From the NCBI GenBank assembly GCA_964603595.1, contig CAZRVN010000003.1:71603-135602 (forward strand): a stretch of 64,000 nucleotides of DNA, read 5' to 3'. The stretch comes from an uncultured Actinomycetota bacterium. GTDB lineage: Bacteria > Actinomycetota > Humimicrobiia > Humimicrobiales > Humimicrobiaceae. The notes beneath the pieces were generated by a model. That model had not been told where the DNA came from. It worked only from the letters and a program-made list of their open reading frames with translations, and searched no databases. Within the stretch, counting starts at the first letter, position 1, and each line of letters begins with the position of its first letter. The position numbers were made by a program, and so were the translations under genes. Of the stretch, positions 2,014-62,838 are shown piece by piece.

Positions 2014-2017
2014 TTCT

Positions 2018-13937: not shown

Positions 13938-14114
13938 AGATAATAACCTAAAGAATTATTGAGTTTGGATAAAGTCAGGCATATATTACCTCCGGTGAAT
14001 GTGTTATTTACAGGTGAGATTAAAAAGTAAAATAAGCTGTCAATTGAACTATCCAAGGGTTGTGTTTACAATAATATTAAGTTCATATATTAATAAGTTT
14101 AAATAAATATATTT

Positions 14115-14966: not shown

Positions 14967-15097
14967 TCGATTAAGGGATTTAATTAAATGGCTAAAATAA
15001 TGTGAAAAGCTGAAAAGGAGCAAAAAGGTCCTGAATGTAAGAGAAACGGCTGAAGATATAAAGTATGGAGCGATATTTTAGCAGGAGGTGAATTTTA

Positions 15098-17155: not shown

Positions 17156-17254
17156 GACGTTTTTTGTAAGATCGGCAGTAGCATCAGAAAGAGGTTAAAC
17201 AGATATATAAAAAATATGGAAAAGTTATAGGTTGAAAAAGGAAAAATCTCTGTC

Positions 17255-45877: not shown

Positions 45878-47254
45878 TTGTCCGAAAAGAAAATAGTAAT
45901 AATAGGGGGCGGTGTTGCAGGACTGGCTGCCGGTATGCACCTTGCAAGGAGAAACTTTGATGTAAGCATTTTTGAAAGAGGGGATAATTGCGGAGGACTG
46001 GCGTCGGGAAAGATTATTGACGGTAATATATACGAGTACGGGCCTCACTTCTTTCATACAAATAACCCCCATATTCTTAATGAAGTAAAGGAGATCGCCG
46101 GCAGCGAGCTTATTGATTTTAAAAGGACAATTCTAATTAAGTTTATGGATGATTACTTTGTATATCCCCTGTCTATTTTTGAGGTTTTAAAGAAGCTACC
46201 CAAGAAGATGGTTTTTGCTGCTGCTGAAAGTCTTATTAAAAATAATATTAAAAGGATATTTAAAAAGCCGGCAGAAGAAAATTCAGAGACATTACTACTG
46301 AAGTATTACGGGGATATTCTTTACGAATTGTTTTTTAAAAATTATATTTATCATGTGTGGGGGATATACCCTGATGAATTTTCACCTGAATTTGCCATGG
46401 AAAGAATACCCCGGATTTCAGGGAGCATATTCTTGAATAAGATAATCTCGCCGGTAAGAGCAAAGCTTACCCGTCAGTCAGCCGATCATTTCGTTGAGAA
46501 TGTGGACGGCCAGCTTTTTACTACCAGAATTGGTTACAGGGGTATTATAAATAAGATGGCAGAAGATATTAAGAGAAATGGCGGCAGGATATACCTGAAT
46601 TCAGAAGTGGTTGGAATAAAAGTTAATGATAAGAGCGTTAAGGAGATTTCAGTAAATTCGGGAAAAACCTGTGACTATAAGGCCGATGCTTTAATAAGTA
46701 CAATTCCCATAAATAAGACAATTACGATTATTTCTCCTCCTGTAAGTAAGACTCTAAGGGAGTCATCGGAATCACTTGAATTCAGGGCGCTTGTTTTTGT
46801 TGGGGTTCTGGTTGACAGGCCAAAGGTGCTCCCGGTATCTTTTATGTATTTCAGGGAACATGCTTTTAATCGTATTTATGATTCTTCATATTTCAGCCAT
46901 GATACAATTAAGCCCGATACCACGATACTGGTTGCGGAAATAAGCAGCGGTAAAAAAGACAGGTGGTGGAATGATGACCAGTATTGTAAGGAAATGGTTT
47001 TAAAAGACCTTTTGAGAGAAGATATTGTAAAGAAAGAAGATATTATGGATATGAATGTCTACAGGTATGAGTATGGATATCCTGTATATAAGTTAGGTTA
47101 TGAGAAACATCTGGGTAATTTATTGAGTTACATAGAGAATATGGAGAATTTTGAAACGGCAGGAAGGCAGGGTAAATTTAATTATATAAATGGCCATGTT
47201 GCCATGCAGATGGGATTTGAAGCTGCAGAGAATATAATTAAAAAAACAGGATAG
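45878..47254 (+). CDS. FAD-dependent oxidoreductase, UDP-galactopyranose-mutase-like
   Basis: GGGVAGLAAG dinucleotide motif. YGPHFFHTNNPHILNEV closely resembles the UGM YGAHIFHTND segment. At 458 aa it is longer than canonical Glf. TTG start behind AAGGAG. Confidence 0.55.
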   Translation: MSEKKIVIIGGGVAGLAAGMHLARRNFDVSIFERGDNCGGLASGKIIDGNIYEYGPHFFHTNNPHILNEVKEIAGSELIDFKRTILIKFMDDYFVYPLSIFEVLKKLPKKMVFAAAESLIKNNIKRIFKKPAEENSETLLLKYYGDILYELFFKNYIYHVWGIYPDEFSPEFAMERIPRISGSIFLNKIISPVRAKLTRQSADHFVENVDGQLFTTRIGYRGIINKMAEDIKRNGGRIYLNSEVVGIKVNDKSVKEISVNSGKTCDYKADALISTIPINKTITIISPPVSKTLRESSESLEFRALVFVGVLVDRPKVLPVSFMYFREHAFNRIYDSSYFSHDTIKPDTTILVAEISSGKKDRWWNDDQYCKEMVLKDLLREDIVKKEDIMDMNVYRYEYGYPVYKLGYEKHLGNLLSYIENMENFETAGRQGKFNYINGHVAMQMGFEAAENIIKKTG

Positions 47255-47312: not shown

Positions 47313-48632
47313 ATGAAAAATACTTGTCTATCAGGCAATAAGCTTATTTCTATTTCTTTAAAATATTTTATTATTTTGATTGCCGTAGTTTTTTTAATTG
47401 GCTATTTTTCTATATCACCCGGCGGGTATCATATCTACAGGGGTGAACAAATCCCGATTATAACCGGGGATGGGTATGGCTATTATTTTTATCTTCCATA
47501 TTATTTAATAAACTACAGAGATATACATTTTGAAAGGCTTTTAAGCCCTTCCGAGTTTGAGCAATTCTGGGATCATTACCAGGTGGGCGAGTCCATTATG
47601 ATTCTGCCCTTCTTTATGATAGGGCACTTATTATCAATTATTTTTAAATATCCTCTGGATGGGCACTCTTTTATTTATCAGCATGCTGCCGGACTATCGG
47701 GTCTATTTTATGCAGTAGCTGGAATTTATGTATTAAAAAAAGTCCTGGAGAGATATTTTTCTAAAAAAGTAACACTAATTACTTTACTGGCAATAATATT
47801 TGGTACCAATCTATATCATTACGGGACGCTTGGCAGTTTATTAAGCCATTCTTTTTCTTTTTTCTTATGTTCTCTGATTATTTACCTCATCCCCTTATGG
47901 TTTGAAAATCCCGGGTCAAAAAAGATAACTTTAATTCTTGGCATTGTGGCAGGATTGGTAATGGTGGTCAGATTGCCCAACATACTTATACTATTGTTTT
48001 TATTATTCTATAGGGTTCACAGCACAGGAGATTTAAAAAAAAGATTTATCTTTTTCTGGCACAACTATAAAAGCATTTTACTAATTGCCATTGTGATAGC
48101 TGTTATTTTTATACCGCAAATAATAACCTGGAAATTAACTTTCAATCAATGGCTGGTTTATTCATACGGAGAAGCAAAATTCCATTTTGACCAGTTGTAT
48201 ATAGCGAGTGTCCTTTTTTCTATCAGGAGAGGGCTTCTGTTCTGGTCTCCAATTCTCTGTTTTGCAATAGCTGGCTTCTGGTTTATGAGAGAAAAAATGA
48301 ATGATTATTTTACAGCTTCCCTTTTATTTATTCCTTTGATTATTTTTATAAATTCAAGTTTTGCCAGGTGGTGGTTTGGTTCGTCTTTCGGTCATAGAGG
48401 TTTTACAGAGTTTTTACCGGTATTTGCACTGGCAACTGCAGCGTTTTATTCATCATTAAAGAATAAGAGAATTAAAATAATCATTTATATATTAACTACT
48501 GTATTTATCGTTTATTCTATATTACAGATGATTCTCTGGTGGAAGGGGTGGGTACCGCATGATTTAGTGACATTATTATCATATAGAGAATTTTTTATGA
48601 GAATATGTTCTTTCTTGAAATCCATTATGTAA
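47313..48632 (+). CDS. polytopic membrane protein, possible GT-C-like glycosyltransferase
   Basis: 439 aa, about 10-11 TMs. First loop contains ITGDGYGYYFYLPYY. No characterised family recognised. Confidence 0.3.
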   Translation: MKNTCLSGNKLISISLKYFIILIAVVFLIGYFSISPGGYHIYRGEQIPIITGDGYGYYFYLPYYLINYRDIHFERLLSPSEFEQFWDHYQVGESIMILPFFMIGHLLSIIFKYPLDGHSFIYQHAAGLSGLFYAVAGIYVLKKVLERYFSKKVTLITLLAIIFGTNLYHYGTLGSLLSHSFSFFLCSLIIYLIPLWFENPGSKKITLILGIVAGLVMVVRLPNILILLFLLFYRVHSTGDLKKRFIFFWHNYKSILLIAIVIAVIFIPQIITWKLTFNQWLVYSYGEAKFHFDQLYIASVLFSIRRGLLFWSPILCFAIAGFWFMREKMNDYFTASLLFIPLIIFINSSFARWWFGSSFGHRGFTEFLPVFALATAAFYSSLKNKRIKIIIYILTTVFIVYSILQMILWWKGWVPHDLVTLLSYREFFMRICSFLKSIM

Positions 48633-48661
48633 AAATTGAAATATAAAAAACAACTTGAATT

Positions 48662-49537
48662 ATGAACAGGATGAAAAATAAAATATTAAACTTAATAGTA
48701 ATTATATCAACATTAATTTTGTGTATTTTTATACAATATGTTTTATATTTCCTGGATAAATCAATCTATCTGGGTAGTTTTTTGATGCTGATAGTAAGTG
48801 TCTTCTTTGTTTATATAGGTTTTTTTGATAAAGAGTTATTGATTTTAGATGGACTATTTATTATAGTCTGTCCTCTTTTGTTTATATTTAGTAAATTTGA
48901 TTTTTCTAATTATATCGCATTAAATCTAATTACCCTTTCTTTTCTGGCTGTGGCTATTTATTTATTAAAGGAAAAATTAATTTCGGGCTACCATAGATCA
49001 GGAAAAATTAATTTTAAGAAAAAGATTGGATATACCCTGGCTTGCCTGGGAATACTTTTTATTGTTTTATCTGTATTTAATAATCGGGAGGAAACAGCAA
49101 ATGCATTGCTTAAGTTCTTTCAGCCGGAAAAATATTATAAAGAAATAGATAAAGTAGAGTTAAATGGAGTTGAATATACAAATGAAATAAAAGTTGTTAT
49201 TAATAAACCGGAAAGCGGTGACAGCGTAAGTGGATTATTTGAACTGAAGGGCTGGGCAGCGGATTTGAGTGATATAGAAGATGCCTCCATAGATAAGATA
49301 TATGTATTTCTGAATAGTAAGCCGCAGGATGGAGGTATTTTTCTTGAGAGGGTTGATACCAAGATACGAAGGGAAGATATAGCTGAAGAATATGGTGAAA
49401 AATATAAAGATGCCGGGTATTATATGGTAATTAACTCCCGGAGACTTAAAGATGGGTTAAATAAAATTTATGTTTATGTGCATAGCAATTATTCTGGATG
49501 GGGATATGCTAAAGTAGAAGTTTATGTAAATAATTAG
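48662..49537 (+). CDS. membrane protein with C-terminal extracytoplasmic beta-rich domain (paralogue of the 57384-58733 C-terminal domain)
   Basis: About five N-terminal TMs, then a ~125-aa domain (…GLFELKGWAADLSDIEDASIDKIYVFLNSKP…RREDIAEEYGEKYKDAGYYMVINSRRLKDGLNKIYVYVHSNYSGWGYAKVEVYVNN). Confidence 0.4.
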   Translation: MNRMKNKILNLIVIISTLILCIFIQYVLYFLDKSIYLGSFLMLIVSVFFVYIGFFDKELLILDGLFIIVCPLLFIFSKFDFSNYIALNLITLSFLAVAIYLLKEKLISGYHRSGKINFKKKIGYTLACLGILFIVLSVFNNREETANALLKFFQPEKYYKEIDKVELNGVEYTNEIKVVINKPESGDSVSGLFELKGWAADLSDIEDASIDKIYVFLNSKPQDGGIFLERVDTKIRREDIAEEYGEKYKDAGYYMVINSRRLKDGLNKIYVYVHSNYSGWGYAKVEVYVNN

Positions 49538-49561
49538 AAGAAAAATAGCTTATATTTTATT

Positions 49562-50287
49562 TCAGCCTTCTTTCTTTAATACAATTATCATTGACATCTC
49601 TATTTTCTTAAACAATATATATTTTTCAAAGATTTTTAATAAAGGAACTAATTTGTTATATAAACTTAAAAATTTTTCATTGATAACGCTTCTCCTCAGG
49701 ATAAAACCGTTTAAAATCCATCCAAAAATTGCCGTAAAATTAAAATAATGTGATTCTATTAATTTAAATTCTGTATTTTTTAATATCCTGTCTATATCTT
49801 TTTTATTATATCTTCTCAGGTGGCCAACGCTTTTATCAATAATATTATACAGGTATTTATGGGCAGGAATCAGAAGGATAAGGTTTCCATTTGCGTTTAA
49901 GACATTATGTATATTCTGTATGACTTTAATATCATCTTTAATATGTTCTAAAACATTAATTGCAATGCATGTGTCAATATGAAAGTTACCGTCTGAAGAA
50001 TTCTTTATATTCTCCAGGTTAAAGTTTTCAACATAAACATTTTTAAAAGTTTTGTATCTGGATGATAATTTTTCCACGAAGGTTTCGTCAATATCAGATA
50101 AAATAACGCTGTTATTCCCGTTCTGGCTGATCAAGATTTTAGAAAAGCTGCCCAGACCCGAACCGATTTCAAGTACATCACCCTTTATAAAGGGCTTTAT
50201 TTCTTCATATATCCAGTCATAGAACCTGTTTGCTCTTTCTGAAAAAATCAGCTGGTTGTCTTTGCCTTCCGGTGAATATTCACTCAT
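49562..50287 (-). CDS. class I SAM-dependent methyltransferase
   Basis: VLEIGSGLGSFS motif I and VLEHIKD motif. 241 aa. Transcribed divergently from the ATP-grasp gene. Confidence 0.75.
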   Translation of the reverse strand: MSEYSPEGKDNQLIFSERANRFYDWIYEEIKPFIKGDVLEIGSGLGSFSKILISQNGNNSVILSDIDETFVEKLSSRYKTFKNVYVENFNLENIKNSSDGNFHIDTCIAINVLEHIKDDIKVIQNIHNVLNANGNLILLIPAHKYLYNIIDKSVGHLRRYNKKDIDRILKNTEFKLIESHYFNFTAIFGWILNGFILRRSVINEKFLSLYNKLVPLLKIFEKYILFKKIEMSMIIVLKKEG

Positions 50288-50726
50288 TTTTTTTAATTTA
50301 AATTAATTCTATATATTTTTACTTAAAATGGGCCTTAAATTCCTTGAGCCGATTTATTAATAAATAGATTTCTATCATTTTACCATTGTTTTTTGGTTTC
50401 ACAATAGAACTAATAAATTTTCGGAAAGATATTTTTATATAAAAAAATATATATAATATTTTATTGTGGCGGCAGCTAGTGATAGAATTTATAATATTAT
50501 TTTATTGCTAAATCAGGAAAAGTATCCGCGCCTGAATGAAAAAATGGATGCTTCTCATATTGCGGATTGCTGTTTTGGTTTTAAGCGAGGTTTTTTAATC
50601 TAAAGAGCTGATTTTACCTGCTTGTATATAATTATTTACCTTAGTTTTTAAAGGTTTAGTTTAATATTAATGCAGTAAGTGGCTATAATAGTAAGTATTA
50701 TGAATAGTTAGTTTATAAATAATTTA

Positions 50727-51878
50727 ATGGAATCTAAAAAAGTACTTATACTTGGGGTTACCCACCCCCAGATTGATGCGATATTATACTGCAGGAGAAT
50801 GGGATATGAAGTCCATGGCTTGAGTTATCACCGTGAAGGTATGGGTATACCTTATCTTGATTTTTTTGACAGGATTGATATAGCAGATAAAGATGGGGTT
50901 TTGGATTATGCCAGAGAGAATAAAGTAGACCTGATTTATTCAACCGGTTCGGATGTCGCTTTACCAACTGTTGCTTATGTGTCCAAAAAATTGAGTTTGC
51001 CCCGGGATATAACCTGTGACCAGGCAATGCTTTTAATTGATAAAAGCAACTTTAGAAGTTTTGCCCTTAAAAATGGCTTGAGCCCTGTTAAATTTAAAGT
51101 GGTTGAAAAACCAGGTGATTTTGAGGACTGGGATTATTTTCCAGCAATAATAAAGCCGGTTGACAGTCAGGGACAGCGGGGAGTCAGGAAGGTAGATAAC
51201 AGAAGGGAGATTGAAAAATATTTTCCCGTTGCCTTAGGGGAATCATTTAGCAAAAAGATAATAATCGAAGAATTTTTAGAGGGTAAGGAAATTAATATTT
51301 TAATATATATGTATAACGGGGAAGCCAGGTATAGTTTTGTAATTGACCGTGTACTGGTGGAAGAAACCATACCAGGGGGATATTCTGCCGGCATGCCGGT
51401 TGGTGTGGTAAAAAAACATATAGTTCCATCTTTTATACCGGAAGAGGACCAGAAAAAGATACGGAGGATTGCAGTTGAATTTATAAAGATGGCGGGCGTA
51501 AAATACGGTCCTGTTTATATACAGGGAAAATACAGGGATGGTGATTTTAAGCTTATTGAGGTTGCCCCAAGGTTAGATGGCGGGCATATCTGGAAAATAA
51601 TTAAATATAAATATGGTATTGATTTAATAAAAATTTGCTTTGACCGGCTCTTGGGAAAAATTAATTCAGGTGATGTATTCCCTCCAATAAGTGAAAAAGA
51701 TAATAAAAGGTATCAGATTGAATTCTTTCATCAGAAACCCGGCGAGGTTTTTAGGATACCCCCAGACTTTAAAAAAGATGAGTATCTCGAGTACAGTTTT
51801 TATTACAGGAATGGCGAAAAAGTGAAAATCTCAAATGGCCATTTTGAAAAAACCGGTTTCCGGATTACTGAAATATAA
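50727..51878 (+). CDS. ATP-grasp family ligase (carboxylate-amine ligase-like), copy 1
   Basis: Pre-ATP-grasp N-domain plus ATP-grasp core (…FPAIIKPVDSQGQRGVRKV…IIIEEFLEGKEINI…). 383 aa. Confidence 0.75.
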   Translation: MESKKVLILGVTHPQIDAILYCRRMGYEVHGLSYHREGMGIPYLDFFDRIDIADKDGVLDYARENKVDLIYSTGSDVALPTVAYVSKKLSLPRDITCDQAMLLIDKSNFRSFALKNGLSPVKFKVVEKPGDFEDWDYFPAIIKPVDSQGQRGVRKVDNRREIEKYFPVALGESFSKKIIIEEFLEGKEINILIYMYNGEARYSFVIDRVLVEETIPGGYSAGMPVGVVKKHIVPSFIPEEDQKKIRRIAVEFIKMAGVKYGPVYIQGKYRDGDFKLIEVAPRLDGGHIWKIIKYKYGIDLIKICFDRLLGKINSGDVFPPISEKDNKRYQIEFFHQKPGEVFRIPPDFKKDEYLEYSFYYRNGEKVKISNGHFEKTGFRITEI

Positions 51879-51971
51879 TATTTTTATTATAAAATTTAAA
51901 AAATATTATATAATTAAGTACTAATAAATTAATATAAAATCTAAAACTTTAAAAATAGGAGGGACTGCAAT

Positions 51972-52949
51972 ATGAAAAAATCGTTTGTTTTATTAGTTAT
52001 CGTAGCTGTATTTTCTATGTTTATATTCGGGGGTTGTGCTGGAAGTTCTCCGGAATCAAAAAAAGTAGTTGTTGCCCAGCAGTATGGCCTGGGGTATGCA
52101 CCTATTATGGTGATCCAGGAGAAAAAGCTGATTGAAAAGTATTATGAAGGTGCAGAGGTAGAGTGGGTTCAGCTTGGTTCAGGCGGTGCCATAAGAGAAG
52201 CTATGGCTGCAGGAACAGTGGATATAGGCAGTATGGGAGTCCCGCCTTTCCTTATATCATGGGATAAAGAATTGGGGTTCAGGGTTATATCGGCTCTCTG
52301 CAGGATGCCTCTTGGGCTTCAAACATACCATGAAGAGATAGAAACACTTGGTGACATAACACCTGATATGAAGATTGCCCTGCCGTCTCCGGGCAGCATC
52401 CAGCATATTCTTCTTTCTATGGCATGCGAGAAACAGCTGGGTGACCCGACTGCGCTGGATGACCAGATTATTGCCATGACTCACCCGGATGGTGCCAATG
52501 CGCTAATTAATAAAATTGAAATTGATGCCCATTATACTTCGCCGCCATATATTTTTATGGAATTAGAAACTGAAGGTATTCACCAGGTACTGGATGCAGA
52601 GGAAGACTGTTTTGAGGGACCTTTCACCTTCCTTGTAACCATAAGTACGGAAAAATTTAAGGAATCAAATCCTGAGCTTTTTACGGCAGTGGCAGATGCA
52701 CTGGATGAAGCAATTGTCTGGATAAACGAAAACCCTGATGAAGCTTCAGAGCTGCTGGCGGAAGGTATGGATATGGAAAAGGATGAAGTTTACAAACAGC
52801 TTACATGGACAGGAGTAGAATTTTCTAAAAATCCGGAAGGGATGCTTGAGTTTCTAGATTTCATGAAGGAATCTGGATATGTAGCGAAAACGACAGATGA
52901 TGTCTCCGAGCTTATCTGGGATAACCTTGATTACAAGGAAGCAAATTAA
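51972..52949 (+). CDS. ABC transporter substrate-binding lipoprotein, NMT1/SsuA/TauA-like (NitT/TauT family)
   Basis: Lipoprotein signal ending FGGC. Type-II periplasmic binding fold resembling sulfonate/nitrate/taurine binding proteins. Confidence 0.7.
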   Translation: MKKSFVLLVIVAVFSMFIFGGCAGSSPESKKVVVAQQYGLGYAPIMVIQEKKLIEKYYEGAEVEWVQLGSGGAIREAMAAGTVDIGSMGVPPFLISWDKELGFRVISALCRMPLGLQTYHEEIETLGDITPDMKIALPSPGSIQHILLSMACEKQLGDPTALDDQIIAMTHPDGANALINKIEIDAHYTSPPYIFMELETEGIHQVLDAEEDCFEGPFTFLVTISTEKFKESNPELFTAVADALDEAIVWINENPDEASELLAEGMDMEKDEVYKQLTWTGVEFSKNPEGMLEFLDFMKESGYVAKTTDDVSELIWDNLDYKEAN

Positions 52950-52977
52950 TATATAAGTAAAAGTAAAAAAGATAAAT

Positions 52978-53811
52978 ATGAAAGAAATAAATCCGGATTA
53001 TAAAAACCATAGTAAAATACGGCTGGCATTATCCAGTAAAAATTTAAGGGAGCTATGGATAAAAATAGGATTTATAGTAGGTGTTATGATTATATGGGAA
53101 GTAATTGCCCGTTTTGGCAGAGTTTCTTCTACACTGTTCCCACCGATATCTACTATTGGCATAGCCCTGTGGGATAATATTATAACAGGGGAGATTCTGG
53201 AGCATCTTTTATATTCGCTTTACCTTATTTTTATAGGAATAGGCATAGGGATTGTGCTAACCTTTATCCTGACTGTGCTTTATATGATCTATAAACCATT
53301 TGCGAATATACTGGATATAGTTATATCTATTATGCACCCCCTGCCAGGAATTGCGCTGCTGCCTATTATTATGTTGATAGTCGGTCTGGGGGCTAAGGCC
53401 ATAGTAATAGTAATTATACAGTCTGTAATATGGCCTGTTATGGTTAATTCAATTGCAGGATTCCGGTCTATACCAATTACCCAGGTAGAGTTGGGAAGAA
53501 ATATCGGTATGTCTGAATTACGGCTGGTATGTTCCGTTATGATTCCAAATGCTTTTCCACATATTTTTGCAGGTTTAAAGATTGCATGGTCAAGGAGCTG
53601 GAGAGCACTTATTGGTGCAGAAATGATTTTCGGCGCCACCGGGCTGGTAGGAGGACTTGGCTGGTATATTTATAAAAAAAGATATTTTTTGGAAATACCT
53701 GATGTTTTTGCGGGGCTTCTGGTAATCGTGGCTATTGGAATTATTGTAGAAGAAGTAGTAATGAAACAAATTGAAAAGAGGACCATAGTAAAATGGGGAG
53801 TAACTGTTTGA
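52978..53811 (+). CDS. ABC transporter permease (NitT/TauT family, BPD_transp_1)
   Basis: Six TMs with an EAA-like loop (…AWSRSWRALIGAEMIF…). Confidence 0.8.
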   Translation: MKEINPDYKNHSKIRLALSSKNLRELWIKIGFIVGVMIIWEVIARFGRVSSTLFPPISTIGIALWDNIITGEILEHLLYSLYLIFIGIGIGIVLTFILTVLYMIYKPFANILDIVISIMHPLPGIALLPIIMLIVGLGAKAIVIVIIQSVIWPVMVNSIAGFRSIPITQVELGRNIGMSELRLVCSVMIPNAFPHIFAGLKIAWSRSWRALIGAEMIFGATGLVGGLGWYIYKKRYFLEIPDVFAGLLVIVAIGIIVEEVVMKQIEKRTIVKWGVTV

Positions 53812-53812
53812 A

Positions 53813-54577
53813 ATGCGTAAGGTTTTGGAAGTTGAAGGTTTAAATAAAAGCTTCAGGATGAATAAAAAGAATATTCATGTATTGAATAATATATCTTTGT
53901 CACTTATAAAAAGAGACTTTTTAACCGTACTGGGCCCTTCGGGATGCGGGAAATCAACTCTTATAAGATGTATCTGTTGTTTCGAAAAGATTGACGGCGG
54001 TGTAATTAAAGTTGATGGAATGCTGGTAACCAGGCCCGGACCTGACCGGCTAATGGTTTTTCAGGAGTTTAATCAGCTTTTTCACTGGAAAACTGTCTGG
54101 GAGAATATTATTTATCCGCTTAATTTGAATCACAGGAATAAAACAAAAAAAGAAAGAGAAGAGATTGCCAGTAAATTTCTGGAGATGGTTAATTTAAAGG
54201 ATTTTAAAAATGCTTATCCCAGGCAGCTCTCCGGAGGAATGTGCCAGAGGGTTGCCATTGCAAGGGCTCTTGCAATCGGGCCTAAGATTCTGCTGATGGA
54301 TGAACCGTTCGGCGCACTGGATGCCCAGACAAGGAGCATTCTGCAGAAAGAACTGATGGATATATGGAATAAGACAGATATAACAATTATATTTATTACC
54401 CATAATATCCAGGAATCTATCCTTCTGGGAAATAAGATAATGGTACTTTCGCGGATTCCTGCGGCTATCAAGGTATTGGTTGATAATACCATACCATTTC
54501 CAAGAATGCCGGAAACCCCTGAATTTATGGATTTATGGAAGGAGCTTTATTCTACACTGGATGTTAAGAGATTTTAA
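53813..54577 (+). CDS. ABC transporter ATP-binding protein (SsuB/TauB-like)
   Basis: Walker A GPSGCGKST, signature LSGGMCQRVAIARAL and Walker B LLMDEP. Starts 2 nt after the permease. Confidence 0.9.
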   Translation: MRKVLEVEGLNKSFRMNKKNIHVLNNISLSLIKRDFLTVLGPSGCGKSTLIRCICCFEKIDGGVIKVDGMLVTRPGPDRLMVFQEFNQLFHWKTVWENIIYPLNLNHRNKTKKEREEIASKFLEMVNLKDFKNAYPRQLSGGMCQRVAIARALAIGPKILLMDEPFGALDAQTRSILQKELMDIWNKTDITIIFITHNIQESILLGNKIMVLSRIPAAIKVLVDNTIPFPRMPETPEFMDLWKELYSTLDVKRF

Positions 54578-54652
54578 TTAATATGGATTAATTTATAAAA
54601 ATTATTATTTGATAAGCAATATGTCTTTAAAGATAAATTAAATATAAGTCTT

Positions 54653-55618
54653 TTGGTTGGGAGTCAAGAGAATAGAATGTGTGATTTAAGTATTATTGTT
54701 CCTGTTTATAATTCAGAAAAAACAATAGGTGAAGTTGCCAGGCAGATTAAGAAAGCGCTGGATAGTAAGCTTGAATTTGAATTAATAATGGTAAATGATG
54801 GAAGTGCTGATTCCAGCTATAGAAAATGCAGAGAGCTTTTAGAATCAAATAATTTTATAAAATTTATAGATCTTTCCAAGAATTTTGGTCAGCACAATGC
54901 CATACTTGCAGGCCTTGGCTTTGCCAGGGGGGAATTTATAGCTGTTATGGATGATGACCTCCAGTCTCCTCCTGATAAAATATGGAAGTTAATAAATAAA
55001 ATAAGGGAGGGGTATGATGTTGTCTATGCTAATTACATTTACAAAAAACACAATCCGTTGAGGAACCTCGGAAGTAAAATTAATGGCCTGATGGAAACAA
55101 TTTTGCTTAAAAAACCAAAGGGTATAAAAACTTCCAGTTATTTTATAATAAGGAAATATATAGCAAAAGAGGTAATTAAATATAAGGGTCCTTATCCCTA
55201 TTTGGCCGGGTTGATTTTAAGGATTACAAATAATATAGGGATTGTTAATGTCGATCATAAAGAAAGACCATACGGAAAGTCTAATTACAGTTTTATAAAG
55301 CTATTAAAATTATGGGTCAACGGGTTTACTAATTTTTCTGTAAAACCACTGAGGATAGCATTGTTTATGGGCATGTTCCTGGCTTTTGCTGGATTTGCAT
55401 TATCTATCTTTTTTATAATAAGGAAGTTTATGAATCCAGAAATAGCAATTGGTTGGACTTCAATTATTGTAGCGGTATTTTTATTTTCCGGGATTCAATT
55501 AATCTCGGTAGGTTTGATTGGGGAATATGTGGGAAGGAGTTTTTTGTCCCTAAACAAGCAGCCGCAGTATGTGATTAAAGAAAAATATAACGTAGAAGAG
55601 CAAAAAAAAATTAAATAA
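54653..55618 (+). CDS. GT2 polyprenyl-phosphate sugar synthase (GtrB/ArnC/DPM1-like) with C-terminal TM pair
   Basis: LSIIVPVYNSEKTI…LIMVNDGSADSS is the GT2 domain. Two C-terminal TMs (…ALFMGMFLAFAGFALSIFFII… and …IIVAVFLFSGIQLISVGLIGEYVGR) are typical of GtrB/ArnC. Confidence 0.8.
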   Translation: MVGSQENRMCDLSIIVPVYNSEKTIGEVARQIKKALDSKLEFELIMVNDGSADSSYRKCRELLESNNFIKFIDLSKNFGQHNAILAGLGFARGEFIAVMDDDLQSPPDKIWKLINKIREGYDVVYANYIYKKHNPLRNLGSKINGLMETILLKKPKGIKTSSYFIIRKYIAKEVIKYKGPYPYLAGLILRITNNIGIVNVDHKERPYGKSNYSFIKLLKLWVNGFTNFSVKPLRIALFMGMFLAFAGFALSIFFIIRKFMNPEIAIGWTSIIVAVFLFSGIQLISVGLIGEYVGRSFLSLNKQPQYVIKEKYNVEEQKKIK

Positions 55619-55699
55619 TAGAGATAAAATAGATGGAAATCTTCACCCTAATATGATTTTTAAATGTCTATAAGAATTATAATTACATAAGCTATAATT

Positions 55700-57403
55700 A
55701 TGACATCTACCAAAAATGATAGTTTAAAGCCAGAGAATACTGGTAAAAAACTATCAAATTTTTTTTCAAAACCAATTTATGTCTTTATCATATCTATAAT
55801 TATTAATTCGTTATTATTTGCTTTATTTTTTTGTTTTGTTACGCCAAGGTTCCGGACTAATGATGATATTGCTATGATGGAATTTGCATCGGGCAGGATA
55901 AGCGGGCAACCCGGTGAATACCTGATTTATATCAATATTATAATAGGGAAATTACTTTCGTTTTTGTATTTGAGCTTTCCGGAGATTAACTGGTATCCGG
56001 TACTTTTTTATTTTATTCATTTTTTATCAATGACAGTTATATTTTATTGCCTGCTGCTAAAGAAAAAAAATATTTACGCTGTCCCAATTTATCTTTTATT
56101 ATTTTGCTTTTTAGAACTATACATGCTTGCGAATCTGCATTTTACAACAACAGCTTTCATTGCAGGACTGGCAGGTATTATCCTATTTTTTAAATATATT
56201 GATACAAAAGGGGCAAAATTTTACACTGCAATAGCAGGAAGTATCTTACTGCTGGCAGTTTCCGGGCTTATTAGAAAAAATGTATTCTATCTGGTGCTGG
56301 GGCTGTCTGCAGGGATGCTTGCATTAAAGTTTATAAAGAGGAAATCCTGGAAAATACCGGCGATACTGGTAATTATGCTGCTGGTGTTTGGCTTATTTAA
56401 TTTAATTAATGATTATTATTACCAGAAAGACGAGGACTGGAGTTTTTACCAGGAATATAATAAGTATATTGGAAAAATTTGCGGTTACCCTGATTTTAAT
56501 TACAGTGACAGAAATAGCAACGTCTATAATAGCGTGGGCTGGAGCAAAAATGATGTTAGTATGCTCAGGTCATGGTTTTTTTGTGACCTTGAGCTGTATT
56601 CTATGGAGAAGCTTGATTATGTAGTATCCAATATTAAGGTAGACAGGGGGGCAGGAGAGGTCTTTGGAATCCTCGGAAGAGAATTTGCTAAATTAGATAT
56701 AAAAGTTAAGTGGTTTACCGGTTTTTTTCTGGCCATTGCCCTTTTGCTATCCGACAGAAAAAAGAATAAATATATTTTTTCAGTAATATTTTGTTCTTTT
56801 ATAATGTCAGTTTATCTTTCTTATACGGGAAGACTTACGGACTGGGTTTTTTCTCCAATATTCATTTTTAATTGTGTTATAGCTGCTTTTTTTATTTGTA
56901 ATGAAAATGCAGACAGGAGTTTTAAAGTATTAAACAAAACAATTTTCCGGTTAATAGTGCTGGCAATATGCCTGGTGCTTGTCATCTTTACATTTATATC
57001 AGTATCAAAATACAGCAAAATAAATGAGGTAAAGCAGCAGCAACTGGAGCAGGTAATTGAGAAATTAAAAGGAGAAGACGACAGGATATATGTGAGCTGG
57101 GGAGCTACAGGCCTCCGTGATAAAGTTATATTTTTCTCTACTGATGAGTTAAAGAATTATCCTGGTACGATACAGCTTGGCTGGAGGGTTCATACTCCTT
57201 ATTACAACAGTACACTGGAAGGATATTCCGTTGATAACATATATACAGCAATCGTTGAAAGGGATGATATCTTTATGATTTGCAGAGAAGGCGGGGTTAA
57301 TATATTTAGTACTTTTATGTCCGAGCATTACGATAGAACTGTATCGGCTTCTCTTGTTTATGAAGTGGAGGACTTTCCGGTAAATGTGTATAAATTTAAA
57401 TGA
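55700..57403 (+). CDS. polytopic membrane protein with C-terminal soluble domain, possible GT-C-like transferase
   Basis: 567 aa, about 10 TMs. First loop has the acidic motif PRFRTNDDIAMMEF. C-terminal ~150 aa are hydrophilic. Confidence 0.35.
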   Translation: MTSTKNDSLKPENTGKKLSNFFSKPIYVFIISIIINSLLFALFFCFVTPRFRTNDDIAMMEFASGRISGQPGEYLIYINIIIGKLLSFLYLSFPEINWYPVLFYFIHFLSMTVIFYCLLLKKKNIYAVPIYLLLFCFLELYMLANLHFTTTAFIAGLAGIILFFKYIDTKGAKFYTAIAGSILLLAVSGLIRKNVFYLVLGLSAGMLALKFIKRKSWKIPAILVIMLLVFGLFNLINDYYYQKDEDWSFYQEYNKYIGKICGYPDFNYSDRNSNVYNSVGWSKNDVSMLRSWFFCDLELYSMEKLDYVVSNIKVDRGAGEVFGILGREFAKLDIKVKWFTGFFLAIALLLSDRKKNKYIFSVIFCSFIMSVYLSYTGRLTDWVFSPIFIFNCVIAAFFICNENADRSFKVLNKTIFRLIVLAICLVLVIFTFISVSKYSKINEVKQQQLEQVIEKLKGEDDRIYVSWGATGLRDKVIFFSTDELKNYPGTIQLGWRVHTPYYNSTLEGYSVDNIYTAIVERDDIFMICREGGVNIFSTFMSEHYDRTVSASLVYEVEDFPVNVYKFK

Positions 57404-58733
57404 AACAGCAGCGGATTTCATGCATATTTTTAAAAAAGAAATGAATAAAAAGGATAATATTATAAGAAATATAAGAAAAAATTTTATAGGCAGGAAGTTA
57501 AAAATATCTGCTATATTTTTATTTTTTGCTTTGCTGGTTGCTTCAATTGTTCTAAAGAATTTTTTAAATGTTGAAGCCTATTATTACCCGGCTTTTTTTG
57601 TTATTTTAATCTTTTTTTTATACCTCTGTTTTGAATTCGGATATAAAATATTTATATGGTTTTCCCTTATTTTAATGTTACTGGTTTTTCTTTTTATTTT
57701 AATTGATGAAAATCCTCTGTCAGAATTATCCGGGATATATGCTTATATTTTCCTGGGCTTAGGGGTGGCCGGTCTTCTTTTAGACTATGTAAGGGAAAAA
57801 GTTAAAAAAAATAGTCTTCATTTTAAGAATTATAAATTAATTTTATTATTTATTTTAATACTGGTAGTAATATCCCCATTTATTTTATATAGAAGTTATC
57901 TGCCCCATCTACCGGGTATTATTAAAAATATAAGTTACTATTATAAAAGGGATAGTATAAAGTTAGATGGCATTGAATTATCGGAGAATATAATAATTAA
58001 TGTAGAGTATCCTGAAAAAGATGTGATACATAAAGGGATAGCTAGAATTTCCGGATGGGCGGTCGGGGGCAATTCATCGGACGGTCCCGGTATAGATGAA
58101 ATTGAAGTTTTTATTGATGGCAAGCCCGGTATAGGAAAGCGTATTAATTTAGATTCTATCACTATAGAAGAGGGCCCGCCGGCTCGTGAGCTGGTAGAAA
58201 AATTTTACAGTGGTTGCTATGGCAGTAGTCCTGATGAAGAGACACTGGATTACTGGGTTGCAGAAATAGAATCAGGCAATGCCTCTTTTGATGATATGTT
58301 TAAAGATTTTATTTTAGATGAGGAATTTAAAAATAAAAATTTAAGTGATGAGGAATACGTAAATTTGCTGTACGGGTTACTGCTGAATAGAGAAGCTGAT
58401 AAAAATGGTCTCAATTACTGGCTAAATGAATTGAATGAAGAGAAGGATAGGGATATCATATTATATGATTTCTTGAATTCATTTGAGTATAGGGGTTTAT
58501 GCAGGAGATATTATAATGATATATCTGAATATCTTGTTTATGCGAACACAGGCATTAATTTAAAAAAGGAAGATATCGGCGATGAGTATGGAGAACAATT
58601 TGAAATGAGCGGGTTTAATTTCCTGTTTGATAGCAGGGAATTTAAAAATGGAAAGCATACCCTGTATATCTATGCACATTCCCCTGAGTTTGGGTGGGAT
58701 TATGAGATGGTGGAGATAAATATCGAAAATTAA
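57384..58733 (+). CDS. membrane protein with extracytoplasmic domain split by an inserted DUF4214 module
   Basis: About five TMs. The N-half of the shared domain is …ARISGWAVGG…IDEIEVFIDGKPG…. The DUF4214-like segment (FYSGCYG…DYWV…GLNYWLNEL…) lies at ≈58175-58520. The C-half of the domain is …DIGDEYGEQFEMSGFNFLFDSREFKNGKHTLYIYAHSPEFGWDYEMVEINIEN. Confidence 0.5.
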   Translation: MCINLNETAADFMHIFKKEMNKKDNIIRNIRKNFIGRKLKISAIFLFFALLVASIVLKNFLNVEAYYYPAFFVILIFFLYLCFEFGYKIFIWFSLILMLLVFLFILIDENPLSELSGIYAYIFLGLGVAGLLLDYVREKVKKNSLHFKNYKLILLFILILVVISPFILYRSYLPHLPGIIKNISYYYKRDSIKLDGIELSENIIINVEYPEKDVIHKGIARISGWAVGGNSSDGPGIDEIEVFIDGKPGIGKRINLDSITIEEGPPARELVEKFYSGCYGSSPDEETLDYWVAEIESGNASFDDMFKDFILDEEFKNKNLSDEEYVNLLYGLLLNREADKNGLNYWLNELNEEKDRDIILYDFLNSFEYRGLCRRYYNDISEYLVYANTGINLKKEDIGDEYGEQFEMSGFNFLFDSREFKNGKHTLYIYAHSPEFGWDYEMVEINIEN

Positions 58734-58740
58734 ATTAAAG

Positions 58741-59619
58741 GTGAATATGAATAAGAAGATTATTGATAAAAAAATATTCAGGTGTCCTGCCTGCGGGGAC
58801 GAAAACTTATTATTTGAAAAAAGCATAATAAAATGTGGTAAATGTGGTGCTTTTTATAAATTTAATAGCGGCAGATACTTTTTTGTAGATGGAGCCGTCT
58901 TACCTGATGATTTCGTTGATAAACTTAAATACAGATTTAAAAAATTCAGTGTTTTTTACACTTTTCTGATAAGAGTTATAAGTCCAGTTTTTACAGGTAA
59001 CCAGCTGGTTAGATTCGTTAAAGCTTACGTTACCGGGAGGGCTGGCACATTCCTTAATCTTGGCAGCGGGAACAGGTTGCTTTCACCTGAAATAATAAAT
59101 GTTGATATCTTCCCTTATAATAATGTCGATATCGTCGCAGATATCCAGAAGCTTCCTGTAGCAGATGAAAAAATCGATACTGTCATATGTTCTGCAGTTC
59201 TTGAACATGTAAAAAATCCTTATAGCGTGGTAAATGAAATTTACAGGGTATTGAAAGAAGGTGGCCGGACGTATTGTTATATGCCGTTTATATGCGGATT
59301 CCATGCAAGCCCGGATGACTATACAAGATTAACATATGAGGGCATGAAAGTTTTATTTAAGGACTTTAAGATTATTGAACTGGGAGTTGGCGGAGGTCCT
59401 ACAAGTGGATTATTGTGGGTGCTTCAGGAGTGGCTTGCAACATTGCTGTCTTTTGGATTAAAAAAGCTTCATTTCGTATTTTATGTTTTTTTTATGTTAA
59501 TAACCTTTCCATTAAAGTACTTTGATATTATTCTTTCAAAGTTTCCAACGGCAAGAAACATTGCCAGCGGGTTTTATATAATTGCAAGAAAAAAGAAGAA
59601 GGTTGGTAATAATATATGA
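58741..59619 (+). CDS. class I SAM methyltransferase with N-terminal Cys4 zinc-ribbon
   Basis: The N-terminal Cys4 segment is a C-x2-C…C-x2-C ribbon at ≈58783-58845. Methyltransf_11-like core (FLNLGSG…DTVICSAVLEHVKNP…LKEGG). Confidence 0.7.
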   Translation: MNMNKKIIDKKIFRCPACGDENLLFEKSIIKCGKCGAFYKFNSGRYFFVDGAVLPDDFVDKLKYRFKKFSVFYTFLIRVISPVFTGNQLVRFVKAYVTGRAGTFLNLGSGNRLLSPEIINVDIFPYNNVDIVADIQKLPVADEKIDTVICSAVLEHVKNPYSVVNEIYRVLKEGGRTYCYMPFICGFHASPDDYTRLTYEGMKVLFKDFKIIELGVGGGPTSGLLWVLQEWLATLLSFGLKKLHFVFYVFFMLITFPLKYFDIILSKFPTARNIASGFYIIARKKKKVGNNI

Positions 59620-59699
59620 AAAATTTTTATATATCTGTCAGGAATTAATAAGGACTAGTTTTTTATAATTAATTTAAGCTCGTTATAGCAGGTATTAAA

Positions 59700-60407
59700 A
59701 TGAAAAATATATACAGTAAAAGTTTTTTTGAAAGTAACACTGCATGGAAACTGGTTAAGAAATACGAAGTAGATAAATTAATAAGATATTCAATAGACGA
59801 CCGGAATGTGATGGAGATAGGACTTGGAAACGGCTTTACGACAGAATTATTATCAGATCATTTTCAAAAGGTTATTGCTGTTGATATCTCAGGAGGAGTG
59901 ATTGAATATGTAAAGAAAAAATTGGTTACAAGAAAGAATATTGTATATATAAATAGTCCTATTGATAAACTGGATTTTAATTTTACGGTTTATAATTTTT
60001 ATTTGGGGCACATTTTAGAGCACCTGGAATTTCCAGTAAAGTTATTGCTCAATATAAAAAAAATAATAAAAAGCGAAACTATAGGTTATATATCTGTACC
60101 AAATAGTAATTCAATACACAGACAAATAGGGGTGGAGATGGGACTGCTTGAGAGCGTGAATACCCTGAATGAAAATGATATAAAATTTGGGCACAGGAGA
60201 TTATACAATTTGAAAAAAATTAAAAATCATATAAAAAAAGCGGGATTTAATATATTAAAGATTGGCGGTTGTTTTTTAAAGACGATGACTTATGAACAGA
60301 TCAACAGGTTTTGCAGTGAAGAGCTTATAAAAGGGTTCATAGAGATAGCCGATAAGTACCCGGAAATAAGTGGAGATATTTATGCAATTGTTAAAAAAGG
60401 TAATTAA
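59700..60407 (+). CDS. class I SAM-dependent methyltransferase
   Basis: MEIGLGNGFTTE motif I and HILEHLEFP motif. 235 aa. Confidence 0.7.
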   Translation: MKNIYSKSFFESNTAWKLVKKYEVDKLIRYSIDDRNVMEIGLGNGFTTELLSDHFQKVIAVDISGGVIEYVKKKLVTRKNIVYINSPIDKLDFNFTVYNFYLGHILEHLEFPVKLLLNIKKIIKSETIGYISVPNSNSIHRQIGVEMGLLESVNTLNENDIKFGHRRLYNLKKIKNHIKKAGFNILKIGGCFLKTMTYEQINRFCSEELIKGFIEIADKYPEISGDIYAIVKKGN

Positions 60408-61590
60408 TTCTTATACAGGTAAAATTCTAATTTTAGGTGCAGGAGTTTACCAGATCCCTTTAATAAAAAAAGCAAAGGAAATGGGGCTGAAAACAATTGT
60501 TGTAAGTTGCAGGGGTAATTACCCAGGATTTAATATAGCAGATAAGAATTATTATGTAGATACGACCAGTTCTGAGGAGGTACTTGATATTGCCAGAAAA
60601 GAGCATATTAGTGGAATATGTACAACGGGCTCAGATGTGCCTATGGTGACACTGGGGAAAGTTGCTGATGAATTAAAACTGGTGGGTATTACTGAAAAAT
60701 CGGGGATTTTAAGTACCAATAAAGTAAGAATGAAGGAAAGATTTAAAAAATATAATGTGAGAGCGGCTAATTTTATGAAGGCAAGCAGTGCCAGAAACAC
60801 TAAAGAAGCAGTTAATGTTTTTAAACTGCCTGTAGTTTTTAAAGTCGTGGATAGCTCCGGCAGCAGGGGGGTATTTATTGTCAGTAAAATTAAAGAGATA
60901 GATAATATAATTAAGGCAGCGCGTTCCGAAACAAAGAAAAATTATTTCATTGTTGAGGAGTTTCTGGAAGGTAGGGAGTTTGGAGCGCAGGCACTTGTTT
61001 ATAATAATGAGGTCAAGTTTATTCTCCCTCATGGTGATTTTGTTTTCAAGGCAAATACGAATATTCCTGTGGGCCATTTTGTACCGATTAAATTGAAAAA
61101 AAATATTGTTAGAGATTTATATACACAATTAAAAAGGTCGATAAGGTCATTAGAGCTAAATAATTGCGCAATTAATGCAGACTTTATTTTAAAGGATAAT
61201 AAAGTCTTCGTCCTGGAAATTGGAGCAAGGGCAGGAGCAACCTGCCTTTCAGAACTGGTTTCTATTTATTTTGGCTTTAATTATTACCAGTTGATTATAA
61301 ATATGGCTCTGGGTAAAGAACCTGATTTTCGTTTTAGGAGAAAGCTGCCAAATGCAAGCATGCTTCTTTTTTCTAATAAGTCTGGGAATATCAGGAAGAT
61401 AATAGATAAAAATATACCTGATGAAGATATAGTCGAGATTAAGTTTGATTATGGTGTGGGGGACAGGGTTAAAAAGTTTAGGGTCGGGTCAGATAGGATA
61501 GGGCATATAATTGTTAAGGGGAATACTTTAAAAGATGCCTTAAATTTACTGAGAAAAGTTAGAAAAAATATTTTCATTCAAGTTGAATGA
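60370..61590 (+). CDS. ATP-grasp family ligase, copy 2 (paralogue of 50727-51878)
   Basis: …FKLPVVFKVVDSSGSRGVFIV…YFIVEEFLEGREFGAQ… has the same architecture as copy 1. Overlaps the upstream methyltransferase by 38 nt and the downstream aminotransferase by 8 nt. Confidence 0.75.
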   Translation: MEIFMQLLKKVINSYTGKILILGAGVYQIPLIKKAKEMGLKTIVVSCRGNYPGFNIADKNYYVDTTSSEEVLDIARKEHISGICTTGSDVPMVTLGKVADELKLVGITEKSGILSTNKVRMKERFKKYNVRAANFMKASSARNTKEAVNVFKLPVVFKVVDSSGSRGVFIVSKIKEIDNIIKAARSETKKNYFIVEEFLEGREFGAQALVYNNEVKFILPHGDFVFKANTNIPVGHFVPIKLKKNIVRDLYTQLKRSIRSLELNNCAINADFILKDNKVFVLEIGARAGATCLSELVSIYFGFNYYQLIINMALGKEPDFRFRRKLPNASMLLFSNKSGNIRKIIDKNIPDEDIVEIKFDYGVGDRVKKFRVGSDRIGHIIVKGNTLKDALNLLRKVRKNIFIQVE

Positions 61591-62803: not shown

Positions 62804-62838
62804 TTACAGAAGGATTTACTATCCGGGGGAAGGTAATT

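Follow-up and report, generated by a model that had tools for sequence, protein, structure and literature searches.

In the Arn pathway, which places L-Ara4N on lipid A, a DegT aminotransferase makes the 4-amino sugar, the sugar is formylated, and ArnC loads it onto undecaprenyl phosphate; an EamA-type pair (ArnE/F) then flips it and a GT-C enzyme (ArnT) transfers it outside. The three-component glycosylation systems (GtrA/B/C; CsbB-GtcA-YfhO; PgfS with its GT-C partners) act on an unmodified common sugar, without an importer or a ligase. ATP-grasp enzymes activate a carboxylate and then couple it to an amine, and PurD couples glycine with a sugar amine. Here we describe an ATP-binding cassette (ABC) importer encoded at positions 51972–54577 of a window of 64,000 nucleotides from an uncultured Actinomycetota bacterium, where it lies in a glycan locus between an ATP-grasp ligase and a family 2 glycosyltransferase (GT2).

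The importer is proposed to be a dedicated supply line for the decoration of a surface sugar, not a general nutrient transporter, and its cargo acid would be ligated to a dTDP-4-amino-4,6-dideoxyhexose. We hold this reading with moderate confidence. The window contains the full set of module genes, namely ATP-grasp 1, the importer, a GT2 with C-terminal transmembrane (TM) helices, a protein of predicted GT-C fold, ATP-grasp 2, WecE and RmlB. Full-text literature searches found no description of an importer with a substrate-binding protein (SBP) coupled to an ATP-grasp enzyme and a polyprenyl-phosphate glycosylation pair.

The module resembles the Arn pathway in its WecE-type DegT aminotransferase, ArnC-like GT2 and GT-C protein, and in the EamA pair of the Spirochaete loci. 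It differs in its putative sugar, dTDP-4-amino-4,6-dideoxyhexose, in the ATP-grasp that replaces the folate-dependent formyltransferase, and in the SBP-dependent importer within the operon. With the three-component systems it would share a GT-C protein acting outside and, as a candidate, a GT2 of the polyprenyl-phosphate sugar synthase kind; the best curated match of the window GT2 is PgfS, and YfhO-type GT-C genes are present in two related loci, L005 and L006. TauABC and SsuABC of E. coli have the same three-part architecture, the same SBP fold and the same conserved backbone positions for anion binding. Yet identity to them is 21–23%, the scores fall under the family cutoffs, and the genes alongside are ATP-grasp, GT2 and GT-C genes instead of desulfonation genes.

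In the Lic system of phosphocholine decoration (LicB, LicA, LicC, LicD) a transporter encoded in the operon brings in a small molecule from outside; cytoplasmic enzymes activate this molecule, and it ends up on a glycopolymer of the cell surface (PMC8890701). The module would follow the same logic of import, activation and attachment. However, LicB is not an SBP-dependent ABC transporter, a kinase and a cytidylyltransferase take the place of the ATP-grasp, and the linkage is a phosphodiester, not an amide. In the Wbp/Vim system of Porphyromonas and Tannerella, deacetylation by VimE is followed by N-acylation with serine or glycine, giving 2-N-seryl or 2-N-glycyl uronic-acid linking sugars, and the acyl transfer is attributed to VimA, which is FemAB/GNAT-like (PMC7468200). 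An exposed sugar amine is acylated there with a small acid, as is proposed for the module, and one related locus, L094, has a VimE-like deacetylase after the ATP-grasp; but the acylating enzyme of the Wbp/Vim system is not an ATP-grasp and there is no importer. For the HS:2 capsule of Campylobacter jejuni an ATP-grasp amidoligase is known, Cj1438C (PMC11800379), which, like the putative module ligases, introduces an amide into a building block of the glycan. Cj1438C is TupA-like and activates the C6 carboxylate of the sugar itself, whereas the module enzymes are of the PurD/L-amino-acid-ligase (LAL) type, stand beside amine-making enzymes and are coupled to an importer.

The three importer genes are on the forward strand. 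The SBP gene (51972–52949) encodes a lipoprotein of 325 residues with the NMT1 fold, which matches Pfam NMT1_2 (E 2e-10) and NMT1 above the gathering scores. Its N-terminus, MKKSFVLLVIVAVFSMFIFGGC, carries a signal peptide and an FGGC lipobox. The permease gene (52978–53811, 277 residues) matches BPD_transp_1 (E 4.7e-19) and the ATPase gene (53813–54577, 254 residues in a single domain) matches ABC_tran (E 1.7e-28). The ATPase motifs are undamaged, with Walker A GPSGCGKS, the signature LSGGMCQRVAIARAL and Walker B ILLMDEP. Spacers measure 93 nt from ATP-grasp 1 to the SBP gene, 28 nt from there to the permease gene, 1 nt between permease and ATPase genes, and 75–99 nt from the ATPase gene to the GT2 gene, depending on the GT2 start. 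The transporter is intact. Open reading frames (ORFs), Pfam matches and motifs all agree with the preliminary description, which had read a complete importer (FGGC lipoprotein SBP, permease and ATPase) on one strand between an ATP-grasp and a GT2, apart from the permease–ATPase gap that it had given as 2 nt.

The same gene order is present on contigs of three other metagenome samples and in the diverged loci L091 and L097, whose proteins are 84–89% identical; the arrangement is therefore not an assembly artefact. The GC contents of the SBP, permease and ATPase genes are 0.43, 0.38 and 0.39, compared with 0.30–0.38 for the neighbours and 0.39–0.41 for housekeeping genes, a mild elevation that is not diagnostic of horizontal transfer. 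We considered whether the cassette had been inserted by chance or acquired horizontally, and the conserved synteny speaks against chance.

A search with the SBP subfamily gave 768 matches in many anaerobe lineages, the top 120 at 43% identity or more. Eighty genome loci were fetched together with contigs of closer homologues, ORFs were called, neighbouring genes were clustered and an ATP-grasp profile was built. After removal of duplicates 84 related loci were left (cited below by L numbers where needed), which are phylogenetically non-independent. Among 81 loci with any gene immediately upstream of the SBP gene, this gene encodes an ATP-grasp in 55, and an ATP-grasp gene is no more than five genes away in 63 of 84. 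Every other offset carries at most four ATP-grasp genes among the 84 loci, an internal control. A GtrB/ArnC-like GT2 gene is near the importer in 52 of 84 loci (at offset −2 in 48), a WecE-type DegT aminotransferase gene in 41 (at offset −3 in 35) and a GT-C transferase gene in 46, with a PMT_2 gene at offset +3 in 40. The permease gene follows the SBP gene in nearly all of them. In many loci a LysR regulator of a single family is encoded directly upstream; the window itself has none.

The linkage to ATP-grasp was found in 45 of 63 loci of Bacillota, 9 of 10 of Spirochaetota and 2 of 4 of Chloroflexota, and also in Calditrichota, Fidelibacterota and a metagenome-assembled genome (MAG) of Actinomycetes. 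In Geotoga (Thermotogota) the importer is within a glycan locus and the ATP-grasp candidate is weak. The linkage survives heavy rearrangement of the loci and a swap of the ATP-grasp family from the PurD/LAL type to the ATPgrasp_Ter/PylC type, at least two families being involved. Persistence through replacement of the ligase is expected if the imported molecule is the shared element.

In a neighbour-joining tree of the SBPs, which carries no support values, the window groups with L005, L006, L008/9 and L013, all of them linked to ATP-grasp and located in large glycan loci, and the big canonical clade uniformly has ATP-grasp, GT2 and GT-C. All nine loci examined in the clade of the window are glycan loci with an ATP-grasp. 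The preliminary description had asked whether the importer is conserved with the ATP-grasp genes in relatives, and the counts above answer that it is. The opposite outcome that it envisaged, in which the importer belongs to the core genome and is just as frequent in relatives that lack the glycan genes, does not describe the clade of the window. Its remark that such an importer is unusual in a glycan locus needs qualifying, as this placement is the rule in the present SBP subfamily.

In L096, a related locus from an Actinomycetota MAG, 17 of 31.9 kb were seen (1–17094) and compared with window positions 47313–63597. L096 retains the genes for the GT2, the GT-C protein, the DUF4214 protein, two of the three methyltransferases of the cassette (MT_a and MT_c) and the WecE-type transaminase, as well as three upstream genes, at 53–78% identity. 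Within the 17 kb seen, ATP-grasp 1, SBP, permease, ATPase, the third methyltransferase (MT_b) and ATP-grasp 2 are absent. Importer genes and ligase genes are thus found or missing as one set, whereas the glycosylation backbone is otherwise common to both loci, and L096 may be read as a natural control. The GT-C/DUF4214 gene pair is duplicated in L096.

The importer has the NitT/TauT-type architecture, with an NMT1-fold SBP, a permease related to TauC and SsuC, and a single-domain ATPase. The AF2 model of the SBP (predicted local distance difference test score, 94.5) has TauA and SsuA as its nearest solved folds, at 21–23% identity; its structural neighbours also include NrtA, CmpA and ThiY, and NrtA and CmpA rank 26th or lower by Foldseek. 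The SBP scores 89.2 bits against the SsuA family TIGR01728 (cutoff 163.5), 48.7 and 37 bits against the TauA equivalogs TIGR01729 (cutoff 304.25) and NF008553 (cutoff 490), and has no match to the NrtA/CmpA models at E ≤ 1e-5. Among NCBIfam models, the permease reaches about 85 bits with SsuC, SaoP and TauC and the ATPase has SaoA (234 bits), NrtC/D (217) and TauB (192) as top matches, each under its cutoff. In public annotation the SBP is just an "ABC transporter substrate-binding protein".

The ligand contacts of TauA have been published (PMC6906117). They were mapped onto the SBP through a HMMER alignment at about 22% identity and not from coordinates. The anion-binding backbone positions Gly61, Gly79 and Thr132 of TauA are kept as G71, G89 and S142. 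The amine ligands Glu106 and Asp205 are changed to P113 and L221, and Trp176 to S190, and the whole subfamily shares these changes. Many of the same genomes also encode a TauA-like paralogue, which has E, T and W where TauA has Glu106, Thr132 and Trp176, and N or D where it has Asp205; this validates the mapping. The subfamily has its own signature, conserved in all clades (Q37, Y42, D84, P113, S142, Q144, H145, H171, D173, H187, Y193, E197 and F220) and rich in His, Asp, Glu, Gln, Tyr and Phe. Given the changed amine ligands and this signature, the ligand would be something other than taurine bound in the manner of TauA, which departs from the taurine-type specificity suggested before. The same or a similar ligand is probably bound throughout the subfamily. 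At positions 70–71 and 89 the large canonical clade has N-T and A, and both the window clade and the clade without linked ATP-grasp have S-G and G. These positions align with the anion-binding backbone of TauA, and the two groups may bind related but non-identical ligands.

Membership in the named systems was considered in turn. TauABC was rejected on the equivalog scores and the replacement of Glu106, Asp205 and Trp176, and SsuABC on the sub-cutoff SsuA score and on the absence of a monooxygenase or FMN-reductase neighbour in the window and the related loci examined. NrtABCD and CmpABCD were set aside because the SBP has no NrtA/CmpA match and the ATPase lacks the C-terminal NrtA-like regulatory domain. 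Identity with the NCBI "Sao" ABC system does not hold either (SaoX 26 against a cutoff of 300 bits, SaoP 85 against 295, SaoA 234 against 360). By sequence comparison, the transporter appears to be a previously unnamed NitT/TauT subfamily outside every named specificity group.

The ATP-grasps of the module are closest to PurD and the L-amino-acid ligases. In the Fidelibacter-type loci a PIG-L deacetylase gene is immediately upstream of the ATP-grasp gene, and in L094 a gene for a VimE-like UDP-diacetamido-uronate deacetylase is immediately downstream of the importer-linked ATP-grasp gene. Apart from the importer, the companions of the ATP-grasps (WecE-type transaminases, PIG-L and VimE-like deacetylases) all generate a free sugar amine. 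One further locus has activation of a carboxylate next to the importer: in L088 (410–7663) the importer is placed between a carboxylate-adenylating ligase and a DltB-like MBOAT protein, with an AlgX/SGNH protein upstream and a 76-residue carrier-like protein downstream. This would be a Dlt/Alg-like set for polymer acylation with its own importer, likewise carboxylate-activating. The amine-making neighbours, the L088 set and the likeness to PurD and LAL together favour a sugar amine joined to an imported acid over a sugar acid joined to an imported amine. The amide bond would then have the sugar as the amine and the cargo as the carboxylate, the reverse of the polarity in the preliminary description, in which an amine was amidated onto a uronic acid.

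These observations suggest the following path, in which the functional statements rest on sequence, predicted structure and gene context. The lipoprotein SBP would capture a small molecule from the surroundings, with a small carboxylic acid as the likeliest candidate, which would then enter the cytoplasm through the permease, driven by the ATPase. The ATP-grasp would activate the carboxylate of the cargo as an acyl phosphate and join it to the 4-amino group of dTDP-4-amino-4,6-dideoxyhexose, the acceptor being made by RmlB and the WecE-type aminotransferase. The GtrB/ArnC-type GT2 would then load the N-acylated sugar onto undecaprenyl phosphate, and after flipping of the lipid-linked sugar the GT-C enzyme would transfer it to an acceptor on the cell surface. 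An importer would be needed in this scheme because the ATP-dependent ligation must precede flipping and take place in the cytoplasm. From the same evidence we infer that the importer cargo is the substrate of the ATP-grasp, and also the order of the steps and the identities of ligand and acceptor. Uptake from outside is supported by the lipoprotein nature of the SBP, the porin-like gene upstream in diderm loci and the LysR gene upstream in many, which would also fit a response to an external compound. The ABC system was also considered as the flippase of the lipid-linked sugar, and this role was rejected: the system has an SBP and is of type I among importers, and the Spirochaete loci carry an ArnE/F-like EamA pair in addition to it.

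Several points weigh against the proposed path. About 20 importers, forming one separate clade, have neither ATP-grasp nor glycan neighbours, and therefore the transporter can serve other uses. About one third of the ATP-grasp-linked loci lack a nearby DegT gene (e.g. Acetobacterium and several Spirochaetes), so that an amino-sugar acceptor is not proven everywhere. UDP-sugar dehydrogenase genes are present in the window, L005 and L009, with which a uronic-acid acceptor is compatible. With the conserved signature of the SBP, the ligand might as well be a zwitterion, a heterocycle or a sugar-like compound in place of a simple acid, and no solved homologue is informative about the ligand. The comparison with L096 covers 17 of its 31.9 kb. 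Promoter- and terminator-like sites are no commoner in the window than in shuffled sequence, which leaves co-transcription unsupported, and no riboswitch was found in window positions 49400–55800 at E ≤ 1 or in seven canonical loci at the gathering score. As a clue to the substrate, the neighbours of the importers without ATP-grasp were also considered; they are unrelated (DnaK/J, PLD, GGDEF, deformylase, MCP and M20 peptidase), L088 excepted.

Four rival explanations were considered, and each accounts for the observations less fully than the path proposed above. The importer might take up an amine or aminosulfonate (taurine, ethanolamine or serinol) that the ATP-grasp amidates onto the C6 carboxylate of a uronic acid. 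TauA is indeed the closest solved fold, with the anion-binding backbone positions kept; the window (23823–25169) has a UDP-sugar dehydrogenase gene, L005 and L009 have one close to the importer, and L006 has a uronyl C5-epimerase; and an ATP-grasp that amidates GlcA is known in Cj1438C (PMC11800379). But that enzyme is TupA-like and not of the PurD/LAL type found here, the amine ligands and Trp176 of TauA are replaced, and the TauA equivalog scores are far under their cutoffs. Moreover, the canonical module has RmlA, RmlB and WecE without a uronic-acid gene, the genes flanking the ATP-grasps are those of deacetylases and transaminases, and the UDP-Glc dehydrogenase gene of the window is 27 kb off in another sub-block. 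This explanation is thus unlikely, and of the earlier proposal we retain the general idea of a building block taken up for the ligase, which the conserved linkage between ATP-grasp and glycan genes supports, and not the chemistry of taurine or another amine on a uronate. The cargo might instead be formate or bicarbonate, with a PurT- or PurK-like ATP-grasp N-formylating or N-carboxylating the 4-amino sugar ahead of the ArnC-like GT2. ArnC takes an N-formylated sugar, which would make a parallel to the Arn formylation; importers of nitrate, bicarbonate and cyanate belong to the transporter family, the ATPase reaches 217 bits with NrtC/D, and the ATP-grasps have weak PurT and PurK matches. Those matches are no better than the ones to PurD, Ddl and LAL, NrtA and CmpA rank under TauA and SsuA as folds, and the large polar and aromatic signature suggests a bigger ligand. 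Fermentative anaerobes produce both compounds internally, which makes a dedicated high-affinity importer hard to justify, and we regard this possibility as very unlikely.

The two remaining rivals detach the cargo from glycan synthesis. A sulfur-scavenging sulfonate importer of the Ssu/Tau type, merely co-regulated or co-located with envelope genes, would account for the SsuA/TauA-like fold and for the roughly 40 genomes in which the module is beside YeeE/TusA-type, rhodanese, CoA-disulfide-reductase-rhodanese and TrxR genes and LysR. Yet none of the loci examined has an adjacent desulfonating enzyme, the clade of the window lacks any sulfur genes, and where the sulfur island is present the genome has another ABC system, one that is truly TauA-like. 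Strict adjacency to ATP-grasp across rearranged loci and the joint absence in L096 would be left unexplained, and we give this explanation, too, very little credence. Least probable of the four is recycling or sensing, in which the importer recovers a released decoration or fragment, or supplies the inducer of LysR, rather than feeding biosynthesis. A LysR gene directly upstream of the SBP gene in many loci and an importer clade without glycan genes agree with it; the window has no LysR, no conserved hydrolase or esterase stands beside the importer, and recycling predicts a catabolic enzyme as the neighbour, not a ligase.

The genes around the importer, all on the forward strand, are as follows. 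ATP-grasp 1 (50727–51878, 383 residues), of the PurD/LAL type, matches Pfam ATP-grasp_4 and Dala_Dala_lig_C and is directly upstream of the importer. Its best PDB sequence matches are 4dim, which is PurD-like, and 3vot, an L-amino-acid ligase, and the PDB matches of the ATP-grasps also include 4wd3 and BacD. It falls in the same BLAST cluster as the offset −1 enzyme of the 55 related loci, with 26% identity to the canonical-module enzyme. ATP-grasp 2 (60370–61590, 402–406 residues) is of the same family, with NCBIfam/Pfam matches to ATP-grasp, GARS_A and LAL_C2, has 29% identity to the canonical-module ATP-grasp, and is directly upstream of the gene for the WecE-type aminotransferase (61646–62803). 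The latter is a WecE equivalog, i.e. a dTDP-4-amino-4,6-dideoxyhexose aminotransferase, with 584 bits for NF008687 (cutoff 375) and 558 bits for TIGR02379 (cutoff 435), and is of the same family as the DegT at offset −3 in the 35 related loci.

The GT2 (54677–55618; Pfam Glycos_transf_2) is a putative polyprenyl-phosphate sugar synthase, like GtrB, ArnC and PgfS. Its ORF is open from a TTG at 54653 and the gene caller places the start at 54677. It scores 187 bits with PgfS (cutoff 500) and 171 bits with ArnC (cutoff 529) in NCBIfam, both under cutoff, has two C-terminal TM helices (residues 232 and 263), and clusters with the GT2 at offset −2 of 48 related loci. It is followed by a 12-TM protein of 567 residues (55700–57403). 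Comparison with PMT_2 gave an hhalign probability of 2.7% and PDB profile searches were empty; fold comparison alone gave the link to GT-C, and the predicted model, of moderate confidence, has the fold of a GT-C glycosyltransferase. The putative role of the protein is to pass the lipid-linked sugar to an acceptor outside the cytoplasm. The next gene (57384–58733) encodes a membrane protein with five predicted TM helices and a Pfam DUF4214 match, and in L005 the homologue of the GT-C protein, 670 residues long, is fused to DUF4214. Three S-adenosylmethionine (SAM)-dependent methyltransferases complete the cassette: MT_a (58741–59619), which has NCBIfam/Pfam methyltransferase matches and 68% identity by tblastn in L096, MT_b (59700–60407), which is not in the L096 stretch, and MT_c (62839–63597), which is part of the block common to L091, L096 and L097.

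Window positions from about 7 to 64 kb form a large glycan locus with an LCP ligase, an initiating phosphoglycosyl transferase, several GT1, GT2 and GT4 enzymes, two Wzy-like genes, a MurJ-like flippase, RmlB and a UDP-Glc dehydrogenase. The locus serves the cell-wall glycan of a monoderm bacterium, and the MAGs related to the window are labelled Actinomycetota. No small flippase of the GtrA or ArnE/F type was recognised beside the cassette of the window, where unannotated multi-TM ORFs begin at 47313 and 48662 and the MurJ-like gene is at 26801. The two ORFs (47313–48632 and 48662–49537) encode proteins of 8 and 5 predicted helices; both are conserved in L091 and L096, and the flippase may be one of them. 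An FAD amine-oxidase/PRK07208-like flavoprotein is also encoded a short way upstream of the cassette (45878–47254). A radical SAM/SPASM enzyme among the GT4 genes (31347–32324) is atypical for a polysaccharide locus, and so is the hydantoinase A/B (oxoprolinase-like) pair (15098–18871) that separates the LCP/PglF-like genes from the remaining glycan locus.

Other features recur next to the importer in the related loci. In diderm loci of the Fidelibacter type a protein of 348–364 residues is encoded immediately upstream of the SBP (L006, 8942–9988; L093, 8943–9989; L094, 8889–9983). The L094 copy has a weak Porin_4 match and the L006 and L093 copies have no Pfam match; this porin-like protein could form an outer-membrane channel devoted to the ligand of the importer. 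Two independent loci in the SBP clade of the window have a gene for an NfsA-like nitroreductase right after the ATPase gene (L009, 5573–6397; L092, 9041–9823). A protein of about 195 residues that is conserved and has a PK_C (pyruvate-kinase C-terminal) domain is encoded inside the importer operon of L022, L027, L043 and L047 (Chloroflexota, between SBP and permease), and also in Geotoga petraea (L095, 7408–7986). L005, a relative with 72% identity, has its importer ATPase gene (11816–12572) broken into ORFs of 77 and 171 residues, either by a frameshift or by a long-read assembly error.

In about 40 genomes the module is within a conserved island that has one or two rhodanese lipoproteins with Ser/Thr/Glu/Asn-rich linkers, split YeeE/YedE-like Sulf_transp genes, TusA-like genes, a TrxR-thioredoxin fusion, a CoA-disulfide-reductase-rhodanese fusion and LysR, and often a second, TauA-like ABC system. 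Within 10 kb on either side of the SBP gene it was found in L010, L018, L023, L025, L028, L031, L033–L036, L039, L040, L046, L049, L052–L057, L060–L067, L071, L075, L079–L085 and L090. The GT-C gene and the rhodanese genes of the island are nearly always adjacent, and for this reason the rhodanese lipoproteins may be targets of glycosylation. The LysR and YedE-like genes have sub-threshold matches to NCBI selenium-associated families, and a bacterial selenocysteine insertion sequence element (Rfam SECIS_4, 54 bits, above the gathering score) is present at 89–126 of L018, at the edge of the Maledivibacter locus. No paper describing a sulfur island with the module was found.

A bolder reading, which we consider unlikely, is that the module is a phylum-spanning "scavenge-and-decorate" pathway that had gone unrecognised. 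In its commonest form, in the thiosulfate- or sulfur-reducing anaerobes of these roughly 40 genomes, it would build a surface or lipoprotein glycoconjugate with an imported acyl group for the handling of extracellular sulfur or selenium, and the copy in the window would have been recruited into a cell-wall polysaccharide locus. The sulfur-handling part would include LysR co-regulation with the extracytoplasmic rhodanese lipoproteins and the YeeE/TusA, CoA-disulfide-reductase-rhodanese and TrxR genes.

Unusual N-acyl groups are common on bacterial surface sugars, and their origin is often obscure. The transporter belongs to a known family, within which its subfamily is new, and the import of a decoration and an ATP-grasp acting in glycan synthesis each have precedent. 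The compact and recognisable set of SBP importer, ATP-grasp, polyprenyl-phosphate GT2 and GT-C is present in dozens of genomes of at least six phyla, and appears to couple the uptake of an environmental molecule to the decoration of the cell surface. If this is true, the route through an ABC importer and an ATP-grasp would join the few known systems that scavenge and display a molecule, such as those for choline (Lic) and sialic acid, and a large unnamed SBP subfamily would gain a function. Its ligand would be directly testable, the SBP being small, soluble and confidently modelled, and the surface chemistry of these organisms would depend on supply from outside.

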